From contig NC_079534.1 in assembly GCF_003711565.1 (NCBI RefSeq), positions 9,589,991 to 9,653,990 of the forward strand: a stretch of DNA of 64,000 nt, in the 5' to 3' direction. Positions 4,277 through 45,396 of the stretch are shown in pieces. The DNA is from Takifugu flavidus. Its lineage: Eukaryota. Each line of letters opens with the position of its first letter. The first letter of the stretch is position 1. Made by a program: the position numbers and the translations under genes. The notes beneath the pieces were generated by a model. It was not told the DNA's origin. It did no database searches and saw only the letters and a program-made list of their open reading frames with translations.

Positions 4277-4484
4277 CTGTGAATCAGGACACGAAAACGC
4301 AGTGAGTTTCCTCATTAAGACAATTCAATTCTGCTCATATACTACATAACAGATTAGGTAATAAAAGACACATTGCCTTTAAATACATGAAATTTCAGTG
4401 GATATCAGAAAATCAAAGTTGAAGTTATCAATTTCTGAATTATTCAGAGACTGTAAAGTTCAGTGCAGAATCGTTCTACCATAC

Positions 4485-4652
4485 CTTTTGCATGAGGTCC
4501 ATGATATTCTCAAAAGTGCTTTCTTTTTCCGATTCTTGCTTTCCCCTCTCAAAGTGCCCACATATTTCTGTCATTATTTGAGCTTGCTGTTCATAGCGTA
4601 GGTAATCTTCTGAACTAAGGCTGGTCTTGTTGGCTTCCAACCATTTCGGATA
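4485..4652 (-). CDS. pex19: pex19 exon 6 (YPKWLEANKTSLSSEDYLRYEQQAQIMTEICGHFE...MDLMQK)
   Basis: Matches human YPEWLQSHRESLPPEQFEKYQEQHSVMCKICEQFE.... Acceptor cacag, donor gtatgg. Confidence 0.88.
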
Positions 4653-4727
4653 CTGTGAGGATGAGTGATGTTCACAAAGGACACCCGATAGTGAAATTAC
4701 AGAGGAGTGAGTAAAACAGATGCAAAC

Positions 4728-4901
4728 CTTAGCAGTGATGTCTTTCAGAGATGGGTAAAGCACTTCTTTAGAAAGAAGGTTCTGCATGATGGACTGCATG
4801 ATGGGCAGGATATTACTGTCATCACCACCTCCATCACCTCCCTCCCCCAATCCCAGGTCTTCTAGAGCCTTGACTAGGTCATCTCCAGCTAGTCCAGAAG
4901 T
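4728..4901 (-). CDS. pex19: pex19 exon 5 (TSGLAGDDLVKALEDLGLGEGGDGGGDDSNILPIMQSIMQNLLSKEVLYPSLKDITAK)
   Basis: Near-identical to the human ILPIMQSIMQNLLSKDVLYPSLKEITEK block. Acceptor ccccaacag, donor gtttgc. Confidence 0.88.
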
Positions 4902-4991
4902 CTGTTGGGGGACTCTATGGTTAAAACTTTTCAATCACTTGTTTTTATAAAAGGAGTTTTATAGTAACAGACTGAGTTTCATTTTACCCAC

Positions 4992-11449: not shown

Positions 11450-12328
11450 ATGGCCATCGTTTTGCACTCCAGCCCCCTCCTGTGGGCCCGGTTAGCAGCC
11501 CTGATCTTCTCCTGCGTGGCCTTTTCTGTGGCGGTACACGGTGGTGGCCTTAATCATGGAACTGGAGACTGGTGCATCTTCTGCTGGGCCTTCAGTTTTG
11601 CTGGTACCCTGGTCGTTATTCTGGTGGAGCTCTTTGGCCTTCAGACCAGAGCCCCTGTTTCTTGGAAGAACTTCCCAATCACCTTCGCCTGCTACGCTGC
11701 CCTCCTCTGCCTGTCCGCCTCCATAATCTTCCCCCTCTACTTCCTCAAAGGTTCCAGTGGTTCATCTGAAGTCCAAAAGTACCGTATCGTGTCAACTGTC
11801 TTTTCCTGTCTAGCCACTATTGCCTACATGACCGAGGTGAGCATCAGCAAGGCACGGCCTGGTGAAGTTGCAGGTTACATGGCTACAGCCCCTGGTCTGC
11901 TGAAGGTGTGTGAGACCTTTGTGGCCTGCATCATCTTTGTCTTCATCAGCGATCCCATACTGTATGACAATCATGATGCTCTGAAGTACTGCATGGCTGT
12001 CTACTGCATTTGCTTCATCCTATCGGCAGCCATCATCATGCTCTGTATCGGTGAGTGCACTGGCTGTCTTCCCTTCCCTTTCGCCCGTTTCCTGTCTGCC
12101 TATGCACTTCTGGCCGTGGTCCTCTATTTGTCTGCTACCATTATCTGGCCCATATTCAAGTTTGACCCCAAACACAGGGGAATAAAACAAAGGCCTTCCA
12201 CCTGTGGCGGTGCAGGGTTGTGTATTTGGGATAAGTGTATGGCCGTGGCTGTGCTAAGTGGTGTTAACTTTGTCCTTTACCTGGCCGACCTGATCTACTC
12301 CACCCGATTGGTGTTTGTCAATGCTTGA
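11450..12328 (+). CDS. MYADM-like (myeloid-associated differentiation marker family) MARVEL-domain protein; intronless 292-aa CDS
   Basis: Continuous 879-bp ORF with eight predicted hydrophobic helices, consistent with a tandem-MARVEL topology. An acceptor ttcttcctatag at 11398-11409 lies just upstream of the ATG, implying spliced 5'UTR exons. Confidence 0.7.
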   Translation: MAIVLHSSPLLWARLAALIFSCVAFSVAVHGGGLNHGTGDWCIFCWAFSFAGTLVVILVELFGLQTRAPVSWKNFPITFACYAALLCLSASIIFPLYFLKGSSGSSEVQKYRIVSTVFSCLATIAYMTEVSISKARPGEVAGYMATAPGLLKVCETFVACIIFVFISDPILYDNHDALKYCMAVYCICFILSAAIIMLCIGECTGCLPFPFARFLSAYALLAVVLYLSATIIWPIFKFDPKHRGIKQRPSTCGGAGLCIWDKCMAVAVLSGVNFVLYLADLIYSTRLVFVNA

Positions 12329-15990: not shown

Positions 15991-17054
15991 GAGAGACCAC
16001 CACCCCTTTTTGTAATTCATTCATTTATTTTGAATTTGAATCAGTTTTGCTTTTGCAAGAAAAACAGAAAAAAGCACACTGAACCCAGACACGCCCTTAT
16101 ATAATTTATGTTGATAGGATGTTAAAACATTATATTTCCTTTATAAAACAACAGCAATTTCCTGTGGTCAAAATGACAGAATTCATTGTAACTAGCATCT
16201 TAATACCAGCAGCATAGAATTTTTTTTAAAATGATGGTGAAGAATAAAAGGCACAAGTGTCAGCTCAGTTTGGCTAGTTGTTCATCTGCGACTGGTAAGA
16301 GTGGATATCCTCCCCAATTAATTGTGTTACTATGGAGGAAAAAGAGAAAGTCACAATGCTGTTCATCGCACCATTTCATATCCACATTTCCTAGGTTTCT
16401 GAGAATGTTAACTCACATTATAAAGACAGAATCAAGGGAATAATCACTTTGTGCTTGTTTAGCCCTGATGAGAACATGTTTCAGTCTTAAAGTTACTATT
16501 ATTTAGTTTAATTGGGCTCAAATATCAGAGGTAGCATCAGGAGACATCTGCTCACTCTTTTGCAGCTGGTATACTTTCCCACCGCCCAGGGAGGAAGTCC
16601 TTTTATTCTATACTCTGTCTACTTGTGTCAAAAATTAACACTATTCGCTACTTCATAATGCCTTTTTTTTTGCTGGGTGTTATAGTTCTGGTAAACAGAG
16701 TGAAATTGTATTTCATAAATACAGTGAAATAGTTTGATTTCAAGTATTATTTGTTGTATCTATAATTTGCGGTTGATAAAATCACGTTGTTAATGTACTA
16801 ATATATCTTATCAGGATAGTAATGTGACCACACCTGAGTCCTAACACATAGCGCAGCATGTATAGACTGAATATTTTAACTTTTATTTGACTAAATGAAG
16901 AGCTTGAAAGCTTATTATCAATCAATGAATAACATACAGACATACAGTGTATATATTTACCTATGTGCATATATCTGCAGATGAACACATATATGCACAT
17001 GAATGAAATCATTATCATTGTTATTGCATGGAAAGAAAAACACATGTAGCTCAC

Positions 17055-17768
17055 CTTCATCAAATGTAATATGGTGCATAGACGCAGAGCTGTTAAACTC
17101 TAGTGGGCACTCCTGAATTTTTTCAGCCCTCTCTCTGACATATTCAGTTTCCACTGCTCCTCCTTGCATCTCCCAGCTATCATATTGAGAGTATGGTGTT
17201 GAGCTGATGTTCTGATAAGGGCTGGGTCTGGAAGGAGGGGAGGAGCACACCTCTTGAGGATATGGAGAGCACTGCAGGTAAGGGGAGGTGGGGATGGGAG
17301 GGAGAGGGGAGGTGGAGATTGGACTACTGGCAGGAAATGGGCTAAAAGAGGAAGAGTGCGACGGTGAAGGTGAAGAGGACAAGTAAGGTGAGTCCAGCCA
17401 TGGGGAAGGGGAATGGGCCTGTGGCCCACGGGAATACAGAGGGGGGAGGAGCTCAGTGAAGCCCAGCTCCAGGTTTTCAAAGCTGGGGTGACGCTCTGAC
17501 AGAATTGCCCTGGGCTCCTCCAATACCACGTCAGGTTTGGAGATGTAATCATCAGGGCAAGACATAGTTGGACAGGGAGGGGAGTAAGTGGAAGGGTAGG
17601 GAGAAAAGTGGAAGCCCAGGCCTCTGTCTTTATTCATGGGATCACTTCTCATGTGGAAACCCCTGTCTATGCTACGCTGACCAGCCAATTGACACACAGT
17701 CCCCCTATCCAGGTGCTGGGCTGAGGGCTGAAGGGAGGACAGTAAGGGGTCCTCTTCTTTAAACATGA
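17055..17768 (-). CDS. nfatc4: nfatc4 large C-terminal exon (IMFKEEDPLLSS...SP-rich transactivation region)
   Basis: Follows the NGKRKRS exon. Matches human NFATC4 VICKEEPLPDSS. Acceptor cctaacag, donor GAAG|GTGAGC at 17054; phase 1 to 1. Further 3' exons and the stop codon were not resolved. Confidence 0.7.
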
Positions 17769-18043
17769 CTGTTAGGAGAAAGAAGAAACAACATTGACAA
17801 ATAATAACATCTTTTCAATCATATCATATAATTTTGTAGTTTTTCACATTTCAATCATTAAGAAAATTCTACCACAAGGTGGTAAAAATTATCTCTCTTG
17901 GGAATAGTTATTTTTTAAGTTGGTAGATAGTTACAAAGTTAAAGTTGTGTATAATGTTTTCAAAGGCATGCTGTAAATGTAAGGGAAATTTCAAAATAAT
18001 AATTTTTGTTGTTATTGAAATCTCTTTTTAAAAAAAGACTCAC

Positions 18044-18170
18044 TGGGAAGATACTTGAAGCAATGAGTGCTGCTCCTTTTCCTTTTCCCATTGGAGACAT
18101 AAAGATTAACGGACACTGGGCGAGCGATGGAGAGGTCGCTGTAGGTGGGGATCCTCACACACAGCAAACA
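18044..18170 (-). CDS. nfatc4: nfatc4 exon (CLLCVRIPTYSDLSIARPVSVNLYVSNGKRKRSSTHCFKYLP)
   Basis: Matches NFATC4 TLTVPEYSNKRVSRPVQVYFYVSNGRRKRS. Acceptor atttcag, donor gtgagt. Confidence 0.85.
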
Positions 18171-18231
18171 CTGAAATAAGAACAGTTAGCTTAGCTGACT
18201 CTTACCACATTTTCCTGATTTTATCATTTAC

Positions 18232-18287
18232 CTCATTGCTGTTGTCGCGGTCAACATGGGCCTCCTCCTCCCACTGGAATTTACCAT
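18232..18287 (-). CDS. nfatc4: nfatc4 exon (DGKFQWEEEAHVDRDNSNE)
   Basis: Matches NFATC4 DGKLQWEEEATVNRLQSNE. Acceptor cttttag, donor gtaaat. Confidence 0.85.
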
Positions 18288-18479
18288 CTAAAAGAGCACA
18301 ACTTAAATGAAGTATAATCTAGGTGGAAAAACACTGCAAATAATATGTTTAATGTAGTTTTTTTTCCCATGTCCCATTTTGGCTCTTTTGCACTGTAGAA
18401 CTCTGATTTTGAGAACACAGAAGATGCAACAGAAATAAACATCATCAACAATATGAAAAAATGATGTAGGGACTTTTAC

Positions 18480-18620
18480 CTGTCCCTCTTTCTGTAAACA
18501 GGACTCTTGAGACTGGCAAGAAGTTTGAACCACTCAACATGAGTTCTTCCCCTCCCTCAACTGAGCAAGAAGTAAGACTGATGGACTCAATAACGGGAAG
18601 CTCCTGAGCTGAACGCTGGG
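18480..18620 (-). CDS. nfatc4: nfatc4 exon ([47 protein letters not shown])
   Basis: Matches NFATC4 [46 protein letters not shown]. Acceptor cctcag, donor gtaaaa. Confidence 0.87.
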
Positions 18621-18756
18621 CTGAGGTAGCAAAGAATGAGAGAGAAAAAAAAGTGAAATCTCAGCTGCACTAAATGCACCCAATTTAATAAGAATTGGAA
18701 ACATTCTGATATCTCCAACTATGTGTCAATCTGCTTGAAAATAAAACTTTACTCAC

Positions 18757-18944
18757 AGCATTCAATGGGCAATGAGGCAACCTGTAGAGCCAAGACTCGC
18801 CCAGAAGGAGCGACAGGGGGCGCAAGAGGAAGATGGACACGAAATACTAAACGGACACGTGTGTTCTTCCTTCCAACATCTGTTTCTCCTTTCCTTAGCT
18901 CAATGTCTGAGTTCCTCAGCTTTAGAATCCCGGCACAGTCAATG
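18757..18944 (-). CDS. nfatc4: nfatc4 Rel-homology exon ([40 protein letters not shown]...LPIEC)
   Basis: Near-identical to the NFAT Rel-homology domain core. Acceptor tgttgtag, donor gtgagt. Confidence 0.9.
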
Positions 18945-19470
18945 CTACAACACAGAGACTCGTTTACATTCATGTCATTGTTACTTTTGATAACTTACCA
19001 CCATCTACATGAAAATGCCTGCTGGATTTAATGATTATTTAAATGCAGATAACATTCTGGGACAGATCTACAAAAACTGCAAGTTAAAGAAAACTTCTTG
19101 GACTGTAGGGAGATGTGTCAGTGCAGCTCAATCAGTGCTGAATCCAATAAAAGCTATTACTCCATTACTTACTATGGCATTAAGCAATTTATCAGTTTAC
19201 TGGTTACTAGTTTACCCAATTTACAATACATCACATGATAACATGATAACCTTCCTATAGAGAAGGGTTTTGTTTTCTTGGAAAAAGTTACAAAATGGAT
19301 CTTCTAATAATTATTACCTGGGTTGCTTCCCCAAAGATCCATGATAAATCATTTAATCAAAGTTTTCTAGGTAAACTATAAGAAAACCCATACATCCATA
19401 AGAAAAACTGAACATTTTTAGTTCAAAATAAAGGGTGAACGCCTTGAGCTTTCCTGTCTGCACCACTCAC

Positions 19471-19572
19471 AGCACTGTCATGTTGTTCTCGGGCGTGAGG
19501 GGGATGTCCAAAAGTTTGGTTCCTGCCTGGACACTCTCATGACTGGCAGTGCCCACCATCTTTCCTGTCACC
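19471..19572 (-). CDS. nfatc4: nfatc4 Rel-homology exon (RVTGKMVGTASHESVQAGTKLLDIPLTPENNMTV)
   Basis: Matches [35 protein letters not shown]. Acceptor ttttgacag, donor gtgagt. Confidence 0.87.
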
Positions 19573-20661
19573 CTGTCAAAAGAGAAAACAGCATTTATTG
19601 CACCTCAAACCCACCTCTGATCCTACACTGACAAGTCAGTCTACTAATCTACCAATTCTCCTATCCACCAAATTCATGGAATTGCAATGAGGAAAGATGC
19701 CGAAGGGTGGGGTGGGGGAAGATGATATGTGCTAAGTTTAACCCTTTAAAGCCGTTTGTATCATATTTGATACGCGAGATTCTGAGACGTCTCTTTTTTC
19801 TAAACCAAAATCAAGTGTGGCAGACCACTGTCCTCTCCAGAAACAACTCCAACACCACCCCGTAAAAGAGGCTGCAGTGTGCCTCTTGTGCTAAAAAGTG
19901 CTATGCAAAAAAAACAAAGAGAAAAATGTTGTTCATGTTCTATATTGTCAAAATGTTATGGGCAAACTTTGTTTTTGTGTCTAAAGTTAACATAGTCGTG
20001 AGCTAAAAGTTGCCGAAATCGCCTAATGTATCATATTTGATACAAAAAAAATGTCATAAACAAAATTTAAAAAAAATTGGGATTTTGTTAAAAGGTTCAA
20101 TAAACATCTCATTTCCAAAAAATTAGAATTTTCTGGCTATTTTTTGATGTGTCAGGCTTTATAGGGTTAAGTTATTTACAAATTCCAAAAATGAAGGATC
20201 TTTTACGGTTTATGAAAAGTGGTTTTGCTAAATTGATTTTGATTTTGTTACTTCTGGATGAAAACATTGCATAATGATCCATGTCCATACATACAATTCC
20301 TATAATTATAATAATATAAATAAATAAATGTCATAAATAATTATGATATGTTATTAATTGTAATGACACATTATATCTTTGTAAACTTTATTGAGAAAAG
20401 TTTGAAAAGTTTGTTTGTTTTTAGCATGCTGATACCAAGGATCTATGTAAGCATAGATTACATTATCTTCACAGTTATGTTTATACTGTTTTTACATTTT
20501 CAATTATAACTGCTGACAGGAACAACAGAGGGTCAGGGGTTCAGTTCTAAGTTGGTTAGAGTGACATTTTGATGAATGATGAGCAGTCTTGATGAACAGA
20601 AAATGACAGAAGGGTGAAATAAATCATAAATTGCTAATAATTGATTGGCGTTTGTTTCCAC

Positions 20662-20762
20662 CTGTGTATCTGATAGAAGGGATGTGGCCGGATTGATCGG
20701 TCATCGGCTGTTCCGACAAAAACCTGCAAGGAGAGTGGCTTCCTCTCAGTGAATCCACATAG
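20662..20762 (-). CDS. nfatc4: nfatc4 Rel-homology exon ([33 protein letters not shown])
   Basis: Matches [33 protein letters not shown]. Acceptor gtccgcag, donor gtggaa. Confidence 0.87.
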
Positions 20763-20878
20763 CTGCGGACAGAATAAAACAGTAAAAACATCACATCTCC
20801 CAAGATCTTGTTCCAATGTTTTGAAACTATTCTGTTTCTGTATCTACAACCACCTGTAGCTGCAGATTTGTATTTCAC

Positions 20879-21041
20879 CTTGACGACAGGATGTCCTGTC
20901 GGTGTAGCCTTCACAGCTCCTCTGCTCCCTTCCGTTTCATAGTGGGCTCTATGGTGAGGACGAGGCTGCACCTCAATACGTAGCTCATACTGGTCAAACT
21001 GGGAAGGCAGTGGCCAGTCAAGTGGTGGCAGCGCATTAGAC
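20879..21041 (-). CDS. nfatc4: nfatc4 Rel-homology first exon ([54 protein letters not shown])
   Basis: Hallmark NFAT RHD N-terminus; closest to NFATC4 ([43 protein letters not shown]). Acceptor ggtggtag, donor gtgaaa. Confidence 0.9.
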
Positions 21042-21495
21042 CTACCACCATATTTAATCAATACACAATCAGCATGCCACATATTCACTGTGATATCTGT
21101 GATTACATAAAGCAAATCACCATCAAACAAGCTTCAAATTATGAGTGGGTAAACAAAACAAAACAGAGCTATTTAGCTATTTAAAAATGTACATAGATTA
21201 GCAAAAATCTATATTCTGTGCACTTAAACAGCAGACTGTTGTATTGTAACACCATTCTATTAAACATTAACATTCATGAAGCTAAAATTGTGCCTAAATT
21301 ACAACTATCTTTGTTCAATATTTTCGCATTCATACAACTCTGGAAAATGACAACTTTCGTTATAGTTTATTTCATGAAAATTAAGAGCTATGCATGTTTA
21401 CCTTCACCGACTCAGAGTACAACTGAGACTGAAATCAATTCATTCCGTGCAGGACAAAAAACATTATTATATGATATGGTGACGTGTATCCTTGC

Positions 21496-21671
21496 CTGAA
21501 CAAAGGGCTGTGGGTATTGACTCGGGCTCTGCCCCAGGCAAGGGCAGGAGGTACAGAGAGGTAGTCCATGCCCAGTGATGGAGGCTCTCTCCTGGTCTTC
21601 TGGGTCTCTGAGAGCAGGCAGGGTGAGCTGGGGCCTGGAGACTGCTCCTGGTCTACCTCCCTGGGAGACAA
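21496..21671 (-). CDS. nfatc4: nfatc4 exon (LSPREVDQEQSPGP...LGMDYLSVPPALAWGRARVNTHSPLF)
   Basis: Matches NFATC4 AGMDYLAVPSPLAWSKARIGGHSPIFR. Acceptor cctctag. The downstream splice is a GC donor (AG|GCAAGG at 21495). Confidence 0.75.
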
Positions 21672-21745
21672 CTAGAGGACGCAAAGGTTTGCTACAATGA
21701 CTAAAATGTATTTATTTTAATGACTATGAAGCCACCAATCTTCAC

Positions 21746-22257
21746 CTGCCCCAGTGATGTCTTCCTGGTTTTCTGTGGGATGCTGAGCTCACAACTGATT
21801 GGCTGTGCCTGAGTCAGGTTGATGGAGTCTCCACCCTCGAGGTCGCAGCCATGCAGGTCTTCTGAATAACTGCTTCTCCTTGTGTCGGGGGAGGCAAAAG
21901 GTGTGTTCCTACGCTTTTTACCCCCAGGGGATGTGGGCCTTGAGGATGGAGAGTGCATAAAGTTCATTGTGGCATCGTTCACGTCTTCCTCCTCCACCAA
22001 GAGGGAATCACAGCTTGAAGCGGGGCTGAGCCATCCTCGGGAAGAGGGGCTGGAGGCAGGGCTAGGACTTGGGGAGCTGGGGCATCTGTCACGGTAAGTA
22101 AAAGGATCCAGCAGTGGAAGGTAGAGACGCTCCCTGTCCCAGCAACCACCACCACCACCATCACCCATATCCCAGTACCTTGAAACAGTGGAAGGTGGGT
22201 CATCTTCTGGGGAGATTGTAGTTATCTGAATACTTGGGCACTCAACCACACGAGACT
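21746..22257 (-). CDS. nfatc4: nfatc4 regulatory-domain exon (ESRVVECPSIQITTISP...SP-rich motifs...SRPTSPGGKKRR...IPQKTRKTSLGQ)
   Basis: Contains the calcineurin-docking PxIxIT motif (PSIQIT), serine/SP repeats, the KRR nuclear-localisation signal and the KTRKTS motif. Acceptor gtttcag, donor gtgaag. Confidence 0.85.
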
Positions 22258-24119
22258 CTGAAACCTGGAGGGAAAGTTAGAAGATCTTTGTATCAAAATG
22301 TAGAGAGATATCTTTGTGCACTTTTTAAATATCTATTCGAGGTGATCTCTAGGGAATCAAATCATGAGGTACCACCCTGCTTGTTACCCAAGGCAGCAGG
22401 AAACCATAACTCCTGAAAAAATCAAAAAATATTTAGTGTTGTCCTGAAGTGAAGAAACGGTAATGTCCACAGTTCATGTTGCATTTGAGTGTTTCAACAT
22501 GTGTATGTTGTCATTGTGCCAAGTTCAATTAAATACTTAAATATACAAATGATTACACTGTATTTATGTTTGACAACATCCAGTCTTAATATATATTTTT
22601 TTTCAAAGTAAAACATGTAAAAAACAAAACAATAATTACTAGTTATTATAGTTATATTTGTAGTTATTATAGTTATAGTTGTGTTATAGTTTGTGTTCAG
22701 ATTTACCTGGACAGAACGTGCCGGCAGGCTCTCATAGGTCCCGATGAACTCTCTGATGGCGGCACGTCGTGGTGGAGGGGAATTCATCCCAGCTTGCTGA
22801 CTGACTAAGGGAGGTGGACTGGGGATGATGATCAAGTGTTCATCATGAGATGTAGCTAGGTGATTATCTGCAACTGAGAAATGGATAAATTCAAACACCG
22901 AATGTACGTAAACACCAAAATCTGTGGCACTGAAGTAGGATGAAGTTTAGAGTGGAGCTTTTCTTCAGTTACGCTATAATCACCTACAAAGAACAACATT
23001 GAGATGCTATTAAATGATGACAGTGTTCCCTTCTCCAACTTTCTTTGTTGTTGCTTTCTTCTTTTTTAAAAAAATGCTTCATTTACTGCCCTTTAATAAT
23101 TTTTCAGAGGGGTAGTTATCTTTAAGCAATAATGCCGGTGGGCCAGCTCTAATAGTCAATTGGTATGGCTTCGCGGGCCAAATATAATTACACTGCGGAC
23201 CAAATTTTAGAGTTTGACACCTATGTTTTAGAGGCTTTTGCCTGTGACCTGAGCTTGAAAATGTGCTGATTTTAAGAACATTCATTCATAATAAAGACAT
23301 TTAAAAATTTGATTCAAAACAGTCCGTGTCTTTTTCAATGTATGTTCAAAGACCTTGTCGGAGATTTGGGCCCAAACAATCAGATGACACAAACCCTGGA
23401 AAGTGGCAGCAGCACTCGCCACAGATTGTGAAGTCCGTTTTGGTAAAGATCAATGTACATCTGCAAGTGCCAAGAAATGAGGTCTGTGTGAAAATGGCTT
23501 CAATTGTTTCCTGGCAACATAAATATTTCCAAGTAATTAAATGTGTAATGCTGAGGCAACTGTTTCGCTGGTAGCACAGCAAACAAGCAAACTGTGATTT
23601 GTAAGCTTGTGTACAGAAAATGACCTATTTAAGACAATGAAGCTAATTTCAAATTTACAGGATAAAACACATTTTATTCTTATTCCTGAGTTAAACCTTC
23701 AAGAGAAATGGAGAGTTAAATGTTAAATACAATCAAGTTTGAGTCAGAGTTAGCTCTTGTCATACTTCCAAATAGCTTTTTTCTTCTACAGAGCACTTGT
23801 ATTTAGGGAACAAAATATCTTGTTCTTTAAAGAAACCTCATTTAAACTCCAACAGTAGAGTAGGTCCTGGGCTATGATACCATCTTCATGTATTGTAATA
23901 GCTTTCACAAAAGTCGGCATCAACGCTGAAGCGGAACCGGTTGGTGAGTCTGATTCAGATGATGAAGAAGAGGAATTCGGGATGTTGGACATCGAAATAG
24001 CGCAGCTGTTTAATTCAGATACAGGAGATGAAAACTTTGATGGTTTTGTGGCGGAAGAATGAATATTTTGTTAACTGTGTCGAAACTCACTGTTTTACTT
24101 CCATTGTCATTTTTTACTG

Positions 24120-24942: not shown

Positions 24943-27049
24943 CGCCCACCACCAGATAAGGACAGGATACAGCTAGATGAATGCAACCGCGTTCAATTGA
25001 GTTCTCGGTATGCCTCCAAGGTTTCCTGGAGCTGCTTTCTCCTATATGTGATCCTAAATGCGAGTCATTCCCGGAATAGCCGATCTCGGATGAAATTCCA
25101 GTAAAGATTCTACGCTGTTTTCACACGACGACGGCTGGCTCTTGCTCGAATAATTCCAACTTTTTCAACTTTCAGGCTTTACAGGAGAAGTCATATCTGT
25201 CTTTTCGGTTCCAGTAGGTCGAGAATCGTTGACTTCCCTCTGACTTTTCCGCCGTCTGCACAGCTCCTTCATCATGCCCGGTCAAGACGGAGAGAAGGGG
25301 GTAAGTTTAAATATTCAAATATTTTTTTCTTGTCCTTTACCCTTAATTGCCTTTGGGTGGGTTCCTAGCTCCAGTTGGTCCGTTACTCTTTCTCCATAGG
25401 ACCTTTTGGCTGTCAGTCATGAAGTCCCCCCACTCCCAGCCTGCTTCCTCTCCCCTCTTCCCCTCTTGCGGTTTCTCCATGAATCGCTCCAATCTCTCTC
25501 CGTCTCGCGTTTTATTTGTATTATCTGTTCATCAGTTGCTTATTCTTTATCTGTTCTTGACGGGGAGTTAGTTCATCTTCATAACTTTTTTTTTGCATTG
25601 ATTACTTATAACATTTTAGAAGTCAATCACACGTGTTTTTAATTCATTCAGAAGCACAAAGTTATGGGAACTAGTTTCTCGTCATCTAAGTCTGCCATTG
25701 TAGACCAGCAGGTCTGTGACATTCACATTGGAAACATAAGAGGGCCCATTTCCTGTGGCGATGTACTTAACAGCCCCCCTTTTTTGGAAGTCACTTTTTC
25801 CTCTCCTCCCATTTTCCATGTTTTATAACCCCAATCCTCCTTCCTCTTTTCTCCTGACCAACTCCTCAATGTTCTACCTTCTCTTCAATCTTGTTTCCCT
25901 CCCCTTCCTCTCAACCACAGATCTGTTTCTCATTATCCTCTGTAGTCTGCTCTCTGTCTGAGTCAGGAGATGAAAAACTTCAATAAACATACACTCTCTG
26001 GCAGTCTTTATCCTGGTCAAGCACCATGTCGCACAGCCTCCCTTGCTCTTTCTACCTTACTCCTTCATCCTACTTTTATTCTCACAGTGGAATTTACTGA
26101 CAGGGCAAGGCAGTTCTCTAACTGTCCCCTTTACCGTCTTGAGATCAATAGTCAAACCCCGGTTTGATCACAAAATGCTGCAGTGTGGTTGGGGAGAGAA
26201 CAAAGATCTGTATACTGACTGAAGATAAAAGTCAACCTGATACAACCTGATCTGATAACCAATATTTAACAACTATATTGTGTTTAGAACTATGGGGTTA
26301 GTTACAGCTATTTAAAAGTATTTCTTCTTCTCAGTTTGACCCCCTTTGTTTTAGTTGACATATTCAGATTTTCTGTAACATTCATGAAGCAGTAGCAAGC
26401 AGCCACAAATATCATGTGTGTTTAGAATGTGAAGCATACCTTGAAGACTCCTGTACACATATACCACACATATACCAGTTATAGTAGATACAAGAAGTTT
26501 AATGTTATAAACTGAGCCACCACTGCATGAGGCGTATTTGCTGAAACTGTAGTTTATAGGGTAGCTAAAAAGAAAAACTTGGTTTTTTATTACCACACTA
26601 AGTCCTGATACAGGCAAAAGACAGCTTCATTTTCCATGTGATTTACAAATCTGAACACATTTGGTCAGGCTGTGCTTCAAAGAAAAGCCACATTTATATG
26701 CATGCAAGGTTGGTAATCTTCTGTAGCGGCAATACTTCAAAATAAAAGTGAACTCATAAAAATCCAGTCTGGGAGAGTGAGATGAGGTAATCTCATATGA
26801 ATATGCTGCCACCCAGTGGTAAAAACCAAAACACATTCATTTCCCTCCAAAGTCAGCTCTGTTTTACAAAATGTAATGAAGATGTGGATCTAAGAAAACA
26901 AAAAAATTAGAGATGAGACCAAAATGAAGCGTGTTATGTTTGTTGTGATAGGCCCTCATCAGTCCAGTGATATTTGCACTAGTCCTAGTGGAGCAACTCA
27001 GTATGGATTTAGAGACAGTGAAGAAATAGTGTAGCTTCAGCTAGCGGTC

Positions 27050-30000
27050 CCCCGGCAGCAGCCGGCTAGCCAGGACGGCTGGGTGACGGTTCGCAGGAAG
27101 CGTAGCCCAAACCAAAGGCCCACGGTGAACCACCAACCGCTTCCCCTGGCTAACCGTTTTTCCCCACTCGGCGACACACCCGCTGAGAAACCGACCCTCG
27201 CAATTGGGGATTCTGTTTTGTGCTACGTGAAGACGACTCCAGCGACCATAGTCAAGTGCATTCCGGGGGCCATAGCGGGATAGAAGCAAATTTATGGCTT
27301 CTAGCGAGACGTAAACGTAAGTTATTATTCACGTCGGAGCCAACGACATCCGGCTTCGTCAGTCGGAGGTCACCAAAATTAACATAGAGTCGTTGTGCAA
27401 CTACACAAAAACGATGTCGGAGTCCAAAGCATTCTCTGGTTCCCTCCCCAATCTGGCCAACGATGAAATGTTTAGTCGCATGTCGTCGCTTCCTCACTGG
27501 CTGTCATGGTGGTGCCTCGAAAACCAGGTGGCCTTTATAGACAATTGGAGCACTTTTTGGGGAAAACCTGGTCTGATTAGGAGAGATGGTGCCTCTCTCA
27601 TTTCTAGTAATTTGGCTAATTTTATTAGACCCAAAGTGACCTGACAATCCAGGGTCCAGACCAGGATGCAGAGTTGTAGTCTTACACACCTCTCTGCTGC
27701 TTCCATAGAACCCTCATCCACCAACAATAACATATTTAACACGATAGAGGTAGTCTCTGTTCCACGGTTAAAAGTTCACCAAGCACAGAGCAGGGGAGCG
27801 GTCAATCACCATAATCTTATTAAAATTAATACTAAAGCACAAGTTGGAGAAACTAATATCACAATTAAGTGTGGACTGGTAAATATTAGATCTCTTTTGT
27901 GTAAATCCCTGTTAGTGCACGACCTGATAGCAGATCATCACATTGATTTATTTTGTCTTACTGAGACCTGGCTTCAGGAGGAGGAGTATGTTAGCTTAAA
28001 TGAATCTACTCCTCCTACCCATCTTATCATATTCCTCGTGTTACTGGTCGAGGAGGGGGAGTGGCAGCAATCTATCACTCCAAGGTATAAGTTAATCCTA
28101 GAGCAAAACATGGCTCCAGTTCATTTGAAAGCCTGACTCTCGGCATCACCCATCTGAGCTGGAAGACAGAAAAGCCACTTCTGTTTGTAGTTGTATATCG
28201 GCCCCCTGCTGGGCCACATTCAGCGTTCCTGTCTGAGTTCTCTGATTTCTTATCTGACTTGGTCCTTAGAACAAACAAAGTCATTATTATTGGAGACTTT
28301 AATATCCATCTAGACGTAAATGACAGCTTTAGACATGGCTTCATTTCATTACTTGAGTCAGTTGGTTTCCTCCAGCAGATAAACCAACCAACTCATAACT
28401 TCAACCACACCCTAGATCTAGTTGTGACTTATGGTGTTGAGGTAGAACATGTGTCAGTGTTCCCTCAGAACCCACTCCAGTCAGACCATTCTTTGATCAC
28501 TTTTACATTTTTGATTAAGAATTCTTCTATGCTCAGAGCACAGTCTTACTATAGCAGATGTCTTTCAGATAATGCTGTAGCTAAGTTTAAGGAAGCGATC
28601 CCTCTGCTAATCCCAGGACCACTGTGTGTTTCCCCAGGGATCAATCATTATAATTTTAGCCCTACTGAGGTTGACTCTATTGCTGAAGGTGCAGCAACCT
28701 CACTGAGAATCACGCTTGATTCTGTTGCCCCCCTGAAAAAGAAAATAGTCAATCAGAGGAGGTGTGCCCCCTGGTATAATTCACATATCAGGACCCTCAA
28801 GCAGAAAGTGCGCAGACTAGAAAGGAAGTGGCATTCTTGTAAAATAGACAGCTATCCTGTAGCCTGGAAAGACTGTCTATTAGTTTACAAAAAGGCCCCC
28901 CTCAAGGCTAGAACAGCTTATTTTTCTTCTTTAATTGAGGATAATAAGAACAACCCCAGGTTTCTTTTCAGCACTGGCCAAATTAACCAAGAGTCACAGT
29001 GTTTTAGATCCACGTATCCCTTCTTCCCTTAGTGGTGAAGACTTCATGAGCTTCTTCACTGATAAAGTTCTAGCCATTAGAGAAAAAGCTAACCAGGCCA
29101 TCCCAACAACTGGACCATCACCATAGTACATAGTGGGTACATACAGGTTCTCCAACGAGCCCTTAAACTCCTTCACCCCTATATATTTTTCTGAGGCGTC
29201 TTCGCTAATTCAGAAATCCATGACCACCAAGTGTCTTTTAGATCCCATCCCAACACACCTGTTGAAGGATGTTTTACCAGTGATAGGCAGATCTGTCCTG
29301 GACCAGATCAATTGTTCTTTAGTGACAGGGTATGTACCCCGGTCCTACAAGGTGGCAGTGATTAAGCCGTTGCTTAAAAAACCATCACTGGATCCCGATG
29401 TGTTAGCAAATTACAGGCCGATATCCAACCTTCCTTTTATCTCTAAAATTCTTGAGAAGGTTGTGGTGACTCAGTTACTGTAGCACCTGCAGAGAAACAG
29501 CCTGTTTGAGATTTTTCAGTCAGGCTTTAGAGCTCATCACAGCAAAAAAACAGCACTTCTTAAAGTTACTAATGATCTTCTTATAGCTTCAGATCATGGA
29601 CTGGTCTCTATGCTGGTTCTGCTGGACCTCAGTGCTGCTTTTGATACAGTTGATCACAGCATCCTGTTACATAGACTGGAACATGTGATTGGGATTAAAG
29701 GGACAGCACTAGACTGGTTTAGATCATATTTATCTGATAGATACCAGTTTGCTCATGTCCATGGTGTTCCCTCCTCATACAGTAGGGTTAGCCATGGAGT
29801 TCCTCAATGTTCTGTACTTGGACCAATCCTCTTCACATTGTACATGCTTCCCTTAGGGAACATTATTCGGCAGCATGGGATAAATTTTCATTGTTATGCT
29901 GATGACACTCAGCTTTATTTATCCATGAAACCAGAGGAGACAGAGAAGTTAGTGAAGCTTCAGACCTGTCTTAAAGACATAAAGTCCTGGATGTCTTCAA

Positions 30001-30540
30001 ATTTCCTCCTCCTTAACTCAGGATAAACTGAGGTCATGGTGTTTGGTCCTGAACCTCTCAGGGATAGATTAGATCATATGATCACTCTAGATGGTATCTC
30101 ATTAACATCTAGTCTCTGTGTGAGGAATCTTGGAGTAACTTTTGATCAAAACCTCTCCTTCAACTCACACATTAAAACAGTCTCTAGAAGTGCCTTTTTT
30201 CACTTGAGAAACATCACAAAGATCAGGAAGCTACTGACGCGACATGATGCTGAAAAGTTAGTCCATGCATTTGTTACTTCCAGGCGGGACTATTGTAATT
30301 CTTTATTATCAGGGTGTTCAAACAACCTTTTAAGAAGCCTCCAGCTGATCCAAAATGCTGCAGCCAGAGTTCTGACAGGTATTGACAAAAGAGATCACAT
30401 TACTACATCACTACTTTTAAGATTAGGCTTAAAACCTACCTCTTTGAAAAAGCTTATTGTTACTAATTCTGTAGTTCCAGTTACTATTATAGACAGACAA
30501 ATTATCATACTTATGTGGTCGTCTAATCATTAGGTTAACA
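27050..30540 (+). mobile_element. Non-LTR retrotransposon (LINE) copy, degenerate; AP-endonuclease plus reverse transcriptase
   Basis: Five consecutive frame-shifted ORFs carry endonuclease motifs (LTETWL, IIIGDFNIHLD) and reverse-transcriptase motifs (VLLDLSAAFDTVDH, QGSVLGPILF, YADDTQLY, FHLRNITKIR). Confidence 0.85.
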
Positions 30541-31859: not shown

Positions 31860-32100
31860 AAGAGGACCATGAGACAGGAATGTCTGGCAATTCAATTCAG
31901 TTCATTTTTATTTATATAGCAACTGTTACGATCAAAATTGTCTCTGGGGAATCCCAGGGCCTGACCCCCAACAAGCAACAATGGTAGGAAAAACTACCCT
32001 TTAACAGAAAGAAACCTTGAGCAGGACCAGGCTCATGTAGGGGGACCTTCCTGCTGATGGCCTACTGGGCAGAGATGGAGGTGAAGGGGGGGACAGGTAG
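31860..32100 (+). repeat. Interspersed repeat family B, copy 2
   Basis: ttcatttttatttatatagcaactgttacgatcaaaattgtctctggggaatcccagggcctgacccccaacaagcaac...ctgctgatggcc, followed by G/A-rich sequence. Confidence 0.7.
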
Positions 32101-33183
32101 AAGAGAATAGACATAAATTATGGAAATACATTAATTAGATGACACAATGGGTTTAGTTTGTCAGCATTTTTTGCCATGGTTAAAGTTATCTGATTTGCCC
32201 CTGAAATCAAATAATTGTGTTCATATCTCAGAATTTATGATAAAACAGTGTTTTTCGCTCTCAGAGAAAGCCAAAAACTGCAGTGCAGAGGATGTGTTTG
32301 GATCACTAAAATGTGTGAAAAGCAGTGTTTTTTCCACTTAGAGAAGACTACAAACAGAGGTGTTGATGACCAAAACACTTCAGTGGCTGCAGCACCTAAA
32401 ATGTGATGTTTCCACATGTCATTATCATGTATTAGAGGTTGTTCCTTCCAACAGGAGTTAAATTCATCAATCAGCAATGTTCCTAGCACAGAACCACATC
32501 ATGCGGAATGATGATAATGGACTTTGTCCTATGTGAAACCCAATTCACACTTTTCAGTACTCTTGTGAATTTGGAGACCAATATTAATATTGTCAGGCTA
32601 ATCAGTATTTCCAGTGTGCAATATTAATATTTGAGATCATTATCCTAAATTTCCAAACAAACATATCACATATGCTGGAGCAAAAGGTTGCTGTAACTTT
32701 GATTTAGGCATGCAATTGTAATCGGTATGGTGCTAGGTGTGTGAGTGTGTATGAGTGCGTTCTGCAAGTTGCCGCTTGTACACTCTTCATCCTTTACATG
32801 GAGCTTGTGCAAGAATTTGAATCACCTAGTCATCTACCGTTCCTTGAAATTACTCAACAATTGACGTATGCTGTAACAAGGGCCCCAGGATATATAAAAT
32901 GGAATTTTTCGGTGTGACGCTTACATTGGTAGGGAATAATACATTCGTCTAATAAAAATATATGGTTGCAAATAGTGTTGTATTGTGTCGTATGTCAAAC
33001 TGCACAATTTGAATAGATCCCAACTTAACAGGGTACTTTGTTTAACATTAATAGACTCTGTTTTGGGAATGGGGGGGATTGCAGGACACACCCTCTTAAG
33101 CACAGCATGTTAGAGCCTGTGTGACAGAATGTTCCTCGGTTTATTATGGTCTGTAGAGTGAGAGTGAGACGGCAGCAAGAAAA

Positions 33184-33227
33184 ATGAATATGACACACGC
33201 CATGGAGAAACATCACATCCTGAAAAG
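33184..33227 (+). CDS. Putative first coding exon of the ltb4r-like GPCR (MNMTHAMEKHHILK)
   Basis: ATG followed by donor AAAG|GTAAAT. The phase (2) matches the acceptor at 34609. No in-frame ATG exists between the upstream stop and TM1 in the next exon. Speculative. Confidence 0.3.
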
Positions 33228-34609: not shown

Positions 34610-35201
34610 GATCAACCATTCTGCTAGCACGGACAACTTGAAAATTTCTCATTTACTTTTAAATGAGACAAACATTGAGGAAGAGAGTGTTGTGAGCAAT
34701 GACTTCTCCACAACCTTAGGTGCCCTCATCCTCAGCTTGGTCTTCCTTCTGGGTGTCCCTGGCAACCTTTTCATTGTCTGGAGCATCCTGGCACGTATCC
34801 GCCAACGCTCAGTAACCACCCTTCTCATCCTCAACTTGGCGTGTGCTGATGGACTCTTAATGGCCCTGACCATCTTCTTCATTGTCTATCTAGCCAACCA
34901 GACATGGTTATTTGGTGACATCATGTGCAAAGGTCTCTTCTATCTGTGCAACTCCAACATGTATGCTTCTATCTTCTTGATCACACTGATGAGCATGCAC
35001 AGGATGGTGGTCTTGGTGTTGCCCAGGAAAATATCTTCTATTGTCACCAGTAAATTCATGAAGAGGACCATCATATGCATGTGGGTGCTGGTGATGATGA
35101 TTTCTATCCCATCCGCTGCCTTTCGAGAAGTAAGAGAGGATATTGATGACAGAAATAAAATAAGACTTGTCTGTGCTCCCAATCACACACTGCCACAACA
35201 T
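34610..35201 (+). CDS. ltb4r: ltb4r-like class-A GPCR, exon encoding N-terminus and TM1-TM4 (NHS/NET glycosylation sites; LNLACAD; MYASIFLITLMSMHR; ...CAPNHTLPQH)
   Basis: Acceptor tgtcatcctcag at 34609, donor CAT|GTAAGT at 35202. Similar to leukotriene-B4 receptor BLT1 (MYASVLLITAMSLDR). Confidence 0.75.
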
Positions 35202-37087
35202 GTAAGTAGGCCACTATTTTCTAATTCATCATATTTCTTATTATATTTATTTCTTATTCAGAAGTACATATTTAATAATACCCATCATCCAAGGGGCTTC
35301 TTCAATTCCCTCTGACTGGTAGAGTTGTGTGTGTGTATGGGCATTGTTAAGAGTTGAAGGTTTAATACGCGAGTCATTGGGATAGTTAGTCATCTAGGTC
35401 ACATGGAGCCAGGTATGGATGTGTGTTGGGGCACTGAGAACTGTGTGGCAGAGTTTGAGCCTTATGCCACCTCCTCTGTTTAGAAACTATTTTTCTTGCC
35501 TGACAAAGATGACTTAATTTCTGGCCAAAATCTGAACATTCACCTGGGACAGGTAGGTCAAAACCAAAACCAGGGAAATGGGGGCCTTCACTGATCATAT
35601 CACAGGGGGACCATAACAGCAAGTTTCCCATGAAGAGGTCAAACTGAAAACAGTTTAAGACTTTGCAGTCCACACTGAATCCAATCTCTCAACCTGAAAA
35701 TTTGCATAAACCCCACACGGAGTTAAACACCCACTCTGTTCCACACCACCCACTTTAAAGGATAGGGGTAAACACCAAGCACAGGATATACCCACAAATA
35801 CAGAGGGACAATTAACGGAGCAGAAACACACTAGGGATGCTGTGAAAATGTGTGGATATCCAAACTGGGGTTTTAATTAAATCCAGCAAAAGAAATAAAA
35901 TCTGTGTAGAAAAACCTGGACAGAGCAAAATTTTTCATCCTCTACATTTCATTACTTTTCAACAAACACCACTTGTTCACTTTAAATATAGGAACAGGTT
36001 AAGGCAGAAAAGAGTCCTCCCAAAAGACAAAACACAAGAAGAGCAATGTGGTCTATTCAGTCAGGTGTGGTAAAGATTGCACAGTACCAGTATATGGGAT
36101 CGATTTGGGGAACTCTTCAGGCCAGGACTCAGCAGTAGAGGGACACCTCAAGGTCACGGGCCAATCTTTGAAAGAAACGAGTAGTCAGAGCTTCACCAGA
36201 GCAGGCCGGTGGTTTAAAAGAACCAAAGAAAGCATTCTTGACAGACTGGGAAAGCACAAGATTTTAAGGCACTAAGAACTTAGGCCTACAAAACCCAGAT
36301 TTCCCAATGCCATTTACACCTGTCAGCACGGCCCAGATGACCCACAAGTCAAGAACATGCTGGAAAATGTTTTCTTTCATTCGGGTCATCTTGAAATATA
36401 TCAACTTGAATTCCTCAAAGTTATTTGAAGATGTTTTGCCTCTTATCCAAGAGGATTCTTCAATTCTGAGAACTTTTAAGATGAAAAGAAGGTACTATTG
36501 ACAATGGCCCCATAGCAGTTCCAGGGACTCATGCATGATATCTTCAACTCTTAGTCCCACCTACCATTGTTTTTTCCTTAGAAGTATATAACTCTCTACC
36601 AGTCAGATAGAACTAAAATAGCCTCTTAAGTGAATTTTTACAAATGGATGTAGCCCAGTCGAAAGCACCCAAGCAGCAACTGATGGTGGCATTAGTAAAA
36701 CTTTTTACTCATGTCATGGAACATCTGTTGTGGGTTTCTCATACGACAAATTCTATATTAACATAAAATGAACTGTTTTCTAACTTTGTATGAAACAAAT
36801 TAAAACAACTTTTTGTTATTTTTAAATACAGAAAATGAATAAATTGTCCAGTAATGTCCAGGTCAATCAAAAGCTCTTTCATCAACACAGCAAGTTACTA
36901 ACTACAAAGCAAACAATCAGAAACTGAAGCTGCTGTAGTGAACTGGCAATCAGAGAGAAACTCTGACTATTCATTTTTTTCATGTCACATATGCTGTGGT
37001 GGTGCTGTATAGTCGAAAAAGTGATAACATTACAGGCGATACTTCTCTTATGGCATTTGAAAGGACCTGTTTTGTATCTTTGTGCAG

Positions 37088-37288
37088 GTGAGGTTTCAGT
37101 ACACCTTTGAGACAGTATCAGGATTCATTATTCCTTATGCTGTCATTATAATGTGCTATGTGCTCATCCTGAGACGCCTGAGGCAGACCAAGTTCCAAAG
37201 AAAGGTCCACAGTGAGAAACTCATCTTGGCCATAGTGGTGACATTTGGCATTTTCTGGCTACCATACCATGTTATCAATATGTTACAG
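37088..37288 (+). CDS. ltb4r: ltb4r-like GPCR exon encoding TM5-TM6 (VRFQYTFETVSGFIIPYAVIIMCYVLILRRL...FGIFWLPYHVINMLQ)
   Basis: Acceptor tgtgcag at 37087 (alternative acceptor at 37099), donor CAG|GTATGT at 37289. Matches BLT1 FHLIFEAVTGFLLPF...FWLPYHVVNL. Confidence 0.75.
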
Positions 37289-37670
37289 GTATGTACGGGG
37301 TTGTTCTAGGCTTGTTTCTCTGAAATCTCCAATTCTGCTTTCACACAAAAAAGAAATTTTGAAAGATGTTTATTAATTCCATTTTCTTTTTTTTTGGGGG
37401 GGGGGAAAGGTGGCAGCTGAGTGGTACCCAGAGGATTCACCCACAAGAGAAATGTAAGAAAGGGTTGCAATACCTTCTCATTCAAAAATCACAAGACAAT
37501 CTTCAACACTGAGGATTTTACCATGTTTACTTTTTTCTGATGGTGAAATTAGTCATATGTTTTAATCACTTCATATCAGAAGAAGTAATTTTTCTCCATC
37601 ATTTTAGAACATCATAATCAGAAATTTTGACATCTGTTAAAAATTAAAAATGCTGGTTTTGTTTTGGCAG

Positions 37671-37941
37671 ACTGGATCTTATCTCAAAATCCAGCCGTGC
37701 GGTCACCTCGGCTTTTGCTTTCACCAGTAGCTGTGCCAATCCAGTCCTGTACACCTTTGCTGGAAAGTCTTACATCAAACAGAACGGCGTTGCATTTATG
37801 GCTCGACTCTTTGAGGGAACGTCATTGGACCAAACAGGAAACAAAATGAGTCGGCTCATGAGAAAAGACAATATAGGAAACAGTATTCACTCGTCAAATT
37901 GCTCAACAATTCCTGTTTCACTCAAAGGAGTTGATCTGTGA
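37671..37941 (+). CDS. ltb4r: ltb4r-like GPCR terminal exon encoding TM7 and helix 8 (AVTSAFAFTSSCANPVLYTFAGKSYIKQNGVAFMARLFEGT...GVDL*)
   Basis: NPxxY motif present. Matches BLT1 NPVLYACAGG...KLLEGT. Acceptor ttttggcag at 37670, stop TGA at 37939-37941. The reading frame is incompatible with the strong donor at 37289 (see findings). Confidence 0.65.
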
Positions 37942-38506: not shown

Positions 38507-40091
38507 ACAGTGCCTTGCGAAAGTATTCGGCCCCCTTGAACCTTGCAACCTTTCGCCACATTTCAGGCTTCAAACATAAAGATATAAAATTTAAATTTTT
38601 TGTCAAGAAACAACAACAAGTGGGACACAATCGTGAAGTGGAACGAAATTTATTGAATAATTTAAACTTTTTTAACAAATAAAAAACTGAAAAGTGGGGC
38701 GTGCAATATTATTTGGCCCCCTTGCGTTAAAACTTTGTAGCGCCACCTTTTGCTCCAATTACAGCTGCAAGTCGCTTGGGGTATGTTTCTATCAGTTTTG
38801 CACATCGAGAGACTGAAATTCTTGCCCATTCTTCCTTGCAAAACAGCTCGAGCTCAGTGAGGTTGGATGGAGAGCATTTGTGAACAGCAGTCTTCAGCTC
38901 TTTCCACAGATTCTCAATTGGATTCAGGTCTGGAATTTGACTTGGCCATTCTAACACCTGGATACGTTTATTTGTGAACCATTCCATTGTAGATTTGGCT
39001 TTATGTTTTGGATAATTGTCCTGTTGGAAGATAAATCTCCGTCCCAGTCTCAGGTCTTGTGCAGACTCCAACAGGTTTTCTTCCAGAATGGTCCTGTATT
39101 TGGCTCCATCCATCTTCCAATCAATTTTAACCATCTTCCCTGTCCCTGCTGAAGAAAAGCAGGCCCAAACCATGATGCTGCCACCACCATGTTTGACAGT
39201 GGGGATGGTGAGTTCAGGGTGATGAGCTGTGTTGCTTTTACGCCAAACATATCGTTTTGCATTGTGGCCAAAAAGCTCGATTTTGGTTTCATCTGACCAG
39301 AGCACCTTCTTCCACATGTTTGGTGTGTCTCCCAGGTGGCTTGTGGCAAACTTTAAACGAGACTTTTTATGGATATCTTTGAGAAATGGCTTTCTTCTTG
39401 CCACTCTTCCATAAAGGCCAGATTTGTGCAGTGATTGTTGAAGGACGACTGATTGTTGTCCTATGGACAGACTCTCCCACCTCAGCTGTAGATCGCTGCA
39501 GTTCATCCAGAGTGATCATGGGCCTCTTGGCTGCATCTCTGATCAGTTTTCTCCTTGTTCGAGATGAAAGTTTGGAGGGACGGCCGGGTCTTGGTAGATT
39601 TGCAGTGGTCTGATACTCCTTCCATTTCAATATGATTGCTTGCACAGTGCTCCTTGAGATGTTTAAAGCTTGGGAAATCTTTTTGTATCCAAATCTGGCT
39701 TTAAACTTCTCCAGAACAGTATCTCGGACCTGCCTGGTGTGTTCCTTGGTCTTCATGATGCTCTCTGCGCTTAACAGATACCCTGAGACTATCACAGAGC
39801 AGGTGGATTCTATTTATCATCAGTCATTTAGGACAACATTGGATCATTCAGAGATCCTCACTGAACTTCTGGAGTGAGTTTGCTGCACTGAAAGTAAAGG
39901 GGCCGAATAATATTGCACGCCCCACTTTTCAGTTTATTTGTTAAAAAAGTTTAAATTATTCAATAAATTTCGTTCCACTTAACGATTGTGTCCCACTTGT
40001 TTCTTGACAAAAAATTTAAATTTTATATCTTTATGTTTGAAGCCTGAAATGTGGCAAAAGGTTGCAAGGTTCAAGGGGGCCAAATACTCAT

Positions 40092-44133: not shown

Positions 44134-44968
44134 GTATGTCCAAACAATGGATTTTATGGTACATTGAACAAACATTACCAGTTAAGTCAGAAAAGGAGAT
44201 GTTGTGTATCAAAGAATTTGATATTTTAAGAAATGTGAAAAAGTTGTCTGTGTAAAACAATGTCATACTAAGTCACCCAGATTTTTATTTGTAAATCTTG
44301 TAAATAGCTTTAATTTCACAAGCTGAAAAGATGAATTGGCATACACAGTTTTTGTACATCCTTGTACCTACCTCTCTTGAAGCATACACACAGTTGTAAG
44401 TTTGGATCAACATTGGCAGAACTTCTTTAAGAAGAAAACACATCTGAACACAGTGCGCGAATGCTGTTTATAGATTTCAGTTTCATCATTCAATCGAATC
44501 ATGCCCCTCTGGCTCATTCTAAAGATCATTCAGCTGGGGCTGAACCCTGCCTTTTGCAATCAGGAAAACACAGATAATATGACAACAGGAGTTCCACAAG
44601 GTTGACAGCATCACAGAATCACTCACCTTGCTCATTAACTCCACATCACTGGCCAAGAAAGCCAACACCTCAAGTTCACCTCAGGTTCCTCCGCAAGTTG
44701 AAAAAAGCTTGAGCTCCGCCCCAATTGTAATTTGCAATATTCATATGCACTTAAATCGGTTATGTGTGTTATTTTTATTTACTTTAGTTTGTTTACATGA
44801 TTTTACCCTATTTTGCACGCTCTTTTTTGTGATTTGGATTAATTTTTTAGAAACTGCAAGAAATATCCAAGGCTGAAAGGAATAAAATAACGTTCTCACA
44901 GGCCACAGAGCGGAATATGTAATAACCTTGACTCTGGCTGCTAAATATGCTAAATTTCTTGCCACCAG

Positions 44969-45396
44969 GTGTAGTTCTCGGCCGTGATGGTGGTGCCATG
45001 AAGCAAATGCTGCTGCCTTTCTGGCTTGGCCTTGGTGGAACTTTGGGCTCAGGACGCCAACCATTTCCCTGGATCCACATCTCAGATCTAGCAGGAATTA
45101 TTGCCCACGCCCTTGAACACCCTGGAGACGTTGCCTCCTCCTCTCCACAAGTTTTTAATGGAGTAGCGCCTGTACTGAACACCAATTATGAGTTCACCAA
45201 AGAGCTGGGCAGAATAATGAGGAGACCAACCATTCTCCCTGTGCCTGGCTTCTTTGTTAAAGCTCTAATGGGCTCTGAGCGGGCCATGGTCCTCACACAG
45301 GGCCAGAAAGTCATACCAAAGAGGACACAAGAGTCCGGATATCACTACAAATACCCAGACTTGACCTCAGCCCTTATCGAAATTGTAGGGGATTAA
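44969..45396 (+). CDS. sdr39u1: sdr39u1 terminal exon (VVLGRDGGAMKQMLLPFWLGLGGTLGSGRQPFPWIHISDLAGIIAHALE...ALIEIVGD*)
   Basis: Matches human [50 protein letters not shown]. Acceptor gccaccag, stop TAA at 45394-45396. Confidence 0.92.

Follow-up and report, generated by a model that had tools for sequence, protein, structure and literature searches.

The window analyzed here, 64,000 nt of Takifugu flavidus contig NC_079534.1 (RefSeq assembly GCF_003711565.1), contains an intact and functional-looking ltb4r2b gene, which by its sequence encodes a rhodopsin-class GPCR of the leukotriene B4/12-HHT receptor family. In its 3' half, an apparent conflict of reading frame between the exons for TM6 and TM7 is almost certainly resolved by a conserved 44-nt micro-exon. 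Two introns and this small exon were read as one intron of 381 nt, and this is the source of the apparent conflict.

RefSeq already contains this gene for Takifugu and many other teleosts, with its protein and an exon structure that includes the 44-nt micro-exon, and the finding carries little biological weight. XP_056913678.1 (T. flavidus leukotriene B4 receptor 2b, 383 aa), like its sister RefSeq proteins a predicted model, was mapped onto the window by exact spliced mapping and matched with 100% identity over all residues and the stop. It occupies five coding exons, 33184-33227 and the four exons from 34610 onward in Table 1, and all introns are of the GT-AG type. A preceding sequence-only reading had described a coding sequence split by introns and had recognized three of these exons, those of 592, 201 and 271 nt; reading and translating the sequence confirmed them together with their boundaries and phases. 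Teleost ltb4r2b is as a rule annotated with such a split coding sequence, and the finding is not new.

Table 1. Features of the ltb4r2b locus and of its surroundings, in window positions. Slashes mark splice junctions.
Feature	Position	Strand	Remarks
Pex19 exon	4476-4934	-	
292-aa single-ORF MARVEL-domain protein	11450-12328	+	
NFAT-family exons	16957-22898	-	Neighbouring Ser/Pro-rich ORFs look like NFAT regulatory region
NFAT Rel-homology ORF	20624-21130	-	Matches start of NFATC2/NFATC1 domain; PDB NFATC2 E=1e-22
Alternative first coding exon of ltb4r2b	25274-25300	+	MPGQDGEKG, donor GGG/gtaagt; tblastn with T. rubripes isoform X2 residues 1-9, 100% identical
Upstream coding exon	33157-33227	+	ctgtag/AGTGAG ... 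AAAAG/gtaaat; exact spliced mapping
Large exon, 592 nt	34610-35201	+	cctcag/G ... CAT/gtaagt; N-terminal tail, TM1 to extracellular loop 2; ends in phase 0
201-nt exon	37088-37288	+	gtgcag/G ... CAG/gtatgt; TM5, intracellular loop 3, TM6 (VRFQY...FWLPYHVINMLQ); ends in phase 0
121-nt intron	37289-37409	+	Holds weak pseudo-donor GG/GTTGTT (37299/37300) and T9 G10 run before acceptor aaag/
44-nt micro-exon	37410-37453	+	VAAEWYPEDSPTRE and two bases of an Ile codon; donor AAT/gtaaga
217-nt intron	37454-37670	+	Between micro-exon and last exon; exact spliced mapping
Last coding exon, 271 nt including TGA (37939-37941)	37671-37941	+	Acceptor ttggcag/A; rest of extracellular loop 3, TM7 NPVLY, C-terminal tail
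Tc1/mariner-type transposon	38522-40088	- (transposase)	Just downstream of ltb4r2b
sdr39u1-like exon (DUF1731)	44947-45396	+	Downstream of ltb4r2b
518-aa reverse-transcriptase ORF, retroelement	61478-63034	-	

In a database homology search, the assembled protein aligned over its full length with 'leukotriene B4 receptor 2b isoform X2 [Takifugu rubripes]' at 99% identity, and with more than 100 teleost proteins annotated as ltb4r2b at 70-80% identity over at least 83% of the query. Every named match was called a leukotriene B4 receptor; among the best 120 matches listed, all came from named spiny-rayed fishes or were unnamed sequences, and no zebrafish, gar or tetrapod locus was among them. The Pfam profile 7tm_1 was matched end to end by the model with the micro-exon (profile 1-260 of 260, residues 84-339, E=4.7e-45), with a score of 154.5 bits versus a gathering cut-off of 30.5. 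The cysteines of TM3 and extracellular loop 2 (in MCKG and LVCAPNH), FWLPYH in TM6 and NPVLY in TM7 could all be identified. The closest solved structure was human BLT1/LTB4R (PDB 7VKT, 7K15; 7vkt E=2.4e-63). The top three PDB matches were all BLT1 (E=2.4e-63 to 5.5e-52) and the next family, C5aR1, followed at 2.9e-36. Both the RefSeq name and the structural match thus agree with the homology to a leukotriene B4 receptor proposed from the sequence. Human BLT1 and ltb4r2b are collinear from TM1 to helix 8, and the alignment is unbroken over extracellular loop 3, which is similarly long in both.

The DRY motif at the end of TM3 is replaced by HRM in ltb4r2b, whereas human BLT1 has DRS at this place. 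The HRM site lies at 34997-35005 of the window (protein ...SMHRMVV...) and its histidine aligns with the D of the BLT1 DRS, the classical DRY position. H130 is nearly invariant (at least 90% of the aligned orthologues) and R131 is invariant, and HRM would thus be a trait of the whole orthologue group and not a lesion.

The human LTB4R and LTB4R2 coding regions each consist of a single exon, whereas the coding sequence of this fish gene contains at least four introns. For zebrafish blt1, too, a structure of exons and introns is described (Okuno et al., 2015, PMC4349892). In the same work, zebrafish Blt2b expressed in transfected cells signaled upon exposure to 12-HHT and, with lower potency, to LTB4. 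In a morpholino study of ltb4r2b no macrophage-migration phenotype was obtained and its role remains undefined (PMC10790086). A receptor function of the Takifugu protein is assigned by orthology only and is to be regarded as putative.

The acceptor of the last exon and an alternative acceptor at 37694 both require two upstream bases, as had been stated in the sequence-only reading. Direct joining of 37288 to 37671 indeed resulted in ...NMLQTGSYLKIQPCGHLGFCFHQ*, in which 19 codons are followed by a stop. The conclusion that TM6 and TM7 are in genuine frame conflict could not be upheld, since the supposed intron 37289-37670 contains the 44-nt exon, which resolves the phase exactly. This exon reads aaag/GTGGCAGCTGAGTGGTACCCAGAGGATTCACCCACAAGAGAAAT/gtaaga (GTGGCA...AGAAAT), is entered in phase 0 and left in phase 2, and encodes the start of extracellular loop 3. 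When it was included, an uninterrupted ORF ...PYHVINMLQ-VAAEWYPEDSPTRE-ILDLISKSSRAVTSAFAFTSSCANPVLY... was obtained up to the stop. In the proposed splicing pathway, the strong donor at 37288/37289 would be joined to the micro-exon acceptor at 37409/37410, and the strong donor of the micro-exon to 37670/37671. Phase 0 would in this way be turned into phase 2, keeping the frame open through NPVLY to the TGA.

A scan of the supposed intron identified 15 open AG..GT segments within 37289-37670 that would also restore the frame. Frame restoration was therefore rejected as evidence in itself, and it is homology, not frame, that picks out 37410-37453. With an HMM built from 112 non-Takifugu orthologues, the model with the micro-exon scored 669.5 bits, compared to 617.8 bits for splicing from the weak in-frame donor GG/GTTGTT (exon end 37299) to 37671 and 498.1 bits for the direct join, which corresponds to advantages of 52 and 171 bits, respectively. 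The distance from PYH in TM6 to NPxLY in TM7 was exactly 51 residues in all 112 non-Takifugu orthologues as well as in the model with the micro-exon. When the protein was aligned to ten other teleost orthologues, the junction region showed the consensus QVAAEWYPxxSPTRExLDxISKSSRAVTS.

Use of the weak donor had been offered as the one way to restore the frame. It does so, giving a 372-aa ORF with a short extracellular loop 3, and in this respect the earlier proposal was correct; the translated product is ...NMLQVCTGLDLISK..., and the peptide that had been given for it contained one G too many. However, the spacing between PYH and NPxLY is 40 residues in this product, 11 residues shorter than in 112 of 112 orthologues, and the conserved VAAEWYPxxSPTRE is replaced; its HMM score is also lower. 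In addition, the donor is off consensus at +3, +4 and +5, and this form is absent from the database proteins of all species. Although H2SX84, an old Ensembl model, starts with QVCTG, it reads on into the intron and looks like a prediction artefact. Splicing from the weak donor is thus considered very improbable.

Recent pseudogenization or truncation, in which 37288 is joined to 37671 and the frameshift leads to a protein without TM7, was likewise put forward on the basis of the premature stop, and this stop does arise in the direct join. Against it, the 383-aa ORF is intact with consensus-like splice sites only and is common to three Takifugu species, which together differ at only three positions. 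Also the family motifs, the TM3/extracellular loop 2 cysteines, FWLPYH and NPVLY, are all kept, and the exon structure is conserved across acanthomorphs. A frameshift, stop or loss of a motif in every plausible splice model of ltb4r2b, by which a pseudogene would be recognized, was not found. This explanation is therefore regarded as extremely unlikely.

To compare intron positions and frame with related fish, as had been suggested, genomic sequence was taken for five acanthomorph orthologue loci and each protein was mapped by exact spliced alignment. The last three exons measured 201, 44 and 271 nt in Nelusetta ayraudi, Myripristis murdjan and Polymixia lowei, and 201, 44 and 268 nt in Chaetodon auriga and Boleophthalmus pectinirostris. 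The same trio of exons was thus present in all five species and the phases were identical in five of five (for the 44-nt exon, 0 in and 2 out). The age of the introns was traced as far as basal acanthomorphs (Polymixia). The intron upstream of the micro-exon had a length of 84-111 nt in the five other species and of 121 nt in the window. In these five species, the splice sites of the micro-exon followed the patterns [ac]ag/GTGGC at the acceptor and /gt[ag]agt at the donor. Within the micro-exon, 5, 5 and 11 variable columns were counted at codon positions 1, 2 and 3, respectively (six species).

The acceptor context in the window (37386-37409) consists of a run of T9, a run of G10 and AAAG, and the five other species have an ordinary pyrimidine tract up to [ac]ag. 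This T9-G10 context is odd for the recognition of a 44-nt exon; it is intronic, and errors in its length would be harmless.

An assembly error of 1 bp near 37280-37310 or 37660-37700 had also been considered as the origin of the conflict. Apart from the apparent conflict itself, the only point in its favor is the nearby T9 G10 homopolymer, which is error-prone but intronic. By contrast, the annotated protein maps exactly with no correction, and the exon lengths of 201, 44 and 271 nt equal those of Nelusetta, Myripristis and Polymixia. The T. rubripes models X1 and X2 and the T. bimaculatus model, which derive from separate assemblies, carry the identical VAAEWYPEDSPTREILDLISKSS segment and are identical over both junctions, and a 1-bp correction is therefore needless. 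An error of this kind has next to no probability. In sum, none of pseudogenization, weak donor and assembly error is needed to account for an intact ORF that is identical to the RefSeq T. flavidus protein.

Two Logan contigs, L001 (1217 nt, SRR13709154) and L007 (1329 nt, SRR11928264), contained uninterrupted ORFs of 1089 and 1086 nt, respectively, both including the micro-exon segment. This suggests that they are transcript-like and look as spliced mRNA would. The junctions 37288^37410 and 37453^37671 are probably used in Takifugu mRNA, as far as can be judged from sequence comparison. The micro-exon might be included usually and skipped sometimes, or the acceptor at 37694 might be used sometimes, and minor isoforms would then be predicted, either a 6-TM truncated protein or a receptor without LDLISKSS. 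Skipping is a general tendency of very short exons, and the Ensembl model H2SX85 joins the micro-exon in frame to the 37694 acceptor. However, the full spacing is kept in 112 of 112 orthologues, and the two T. rubripes RefSeq isoforms, X1 and X2, differ only at the N-terminus. Such minor isoforms are accordingly thought to be unlikely, though less so than the explanations discussed above.

A similarly small chance is given to a wider reading, in which either the 44-nt exon acts as a splicing switch in extracellular loop 3 or the three introns of the receptor core are lineage-specific gains. In the first case, skipping would cause a frameshift and a stop in the last exon and would yield a 6-TM receptor fragment, while the T9-G10 acceptor might modulate inclusion. 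Nonsense-mediated decay is not expected for a stop in the last exon. In the second case, introns would have been gained in a family in which the coding region of tetrapod members is a single exon.

The large exon of the window contains no in-frame ATG before TM1; a stop is located at 34587, and the ATG that follows at 34597 is in another frame. Because the frame is closed by this stop, the start must sit further upstream in another exon, where the RefSeq models place it. In the T. flavidus RefSeq model the ATG is located at 33184 in the upstream coding exon, which ends two bases into a codon. Chaetodon, Boleophthalmus, Myripristis and Polymixia have an ATG inside the large exon. In the two Tetraodontiformes, Takifugu and Nelusetta, the start codon lies in a short exon further upstream (44 and 52 nt, respectively), and therefore the 5' structure of the gene has changed in this lineage. 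The isoform X2 model of T. rubripes has two alternative upstream coding exons (MPGQDGEKG and SESETAARKMNMTHAMEKHHILKR), both 100% conserved in the window, where the first of these is intact. The intron of ∼7.9 kb between them contains LINE-like endonuclease and reverse-transcriptase ORF fragments (27666-30533, + strand).

Three public Takifugu models are wrong, each in a different way. H2SX84 ignores the donor at 37289 and continues into intron sequence (QVCTGNF...FFFWGGGKVAAE), and in H2SX85 the conserved LDLISKSS is deleted as a result of the 37694 acceptor. The older T. flavidus GenBank entry TWW73536.1 (321 aa, 'Leukotriene B4 receptor 1') retains the micro-exon; its first exon, at 32057-32098, is doubtful, and 24 residues are missing from extracellular loop 2. 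When two well-supported exons seem to be in conflict of phase, the reason is more often a micro-exon that escaped notice than a pseudogene or an assembly error, and this calls for caution in similar cases; the old Ensembl model H2SX84 erred at the same junction. In the ltb4r2b model of Pseudoliparis swirei (542 aa), the whole part from TM5 to the C-terminus (VRFQY...) is repeated. This repeat could stem from tandem duplication of the last three exons or be an artefact of assembly or annotation.

The neighbourhood of the gene (Table 1) appears to fit the vertebrate BLT locus. Both nfatc4 and sdr39u1 are named in the legend of a BLT locus map (Okuno et al., PMC4349892), and the NFAT paralogue in the window would from synteny be expected to be nfatc4. 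The Tc1/mariner-type transposon has terminal inverted repeats of ∼200 bp, with arms at 38522-38728 and 39891-40088 that are 90-99% complementary. Its transposase is distributed over two overlapping ORFs (HTH 39367-39795 and DDE_3 38727-39506), and this copy is therefore frameshifted. The flanking sequence is TA/CA-rich and microsatellite-like.
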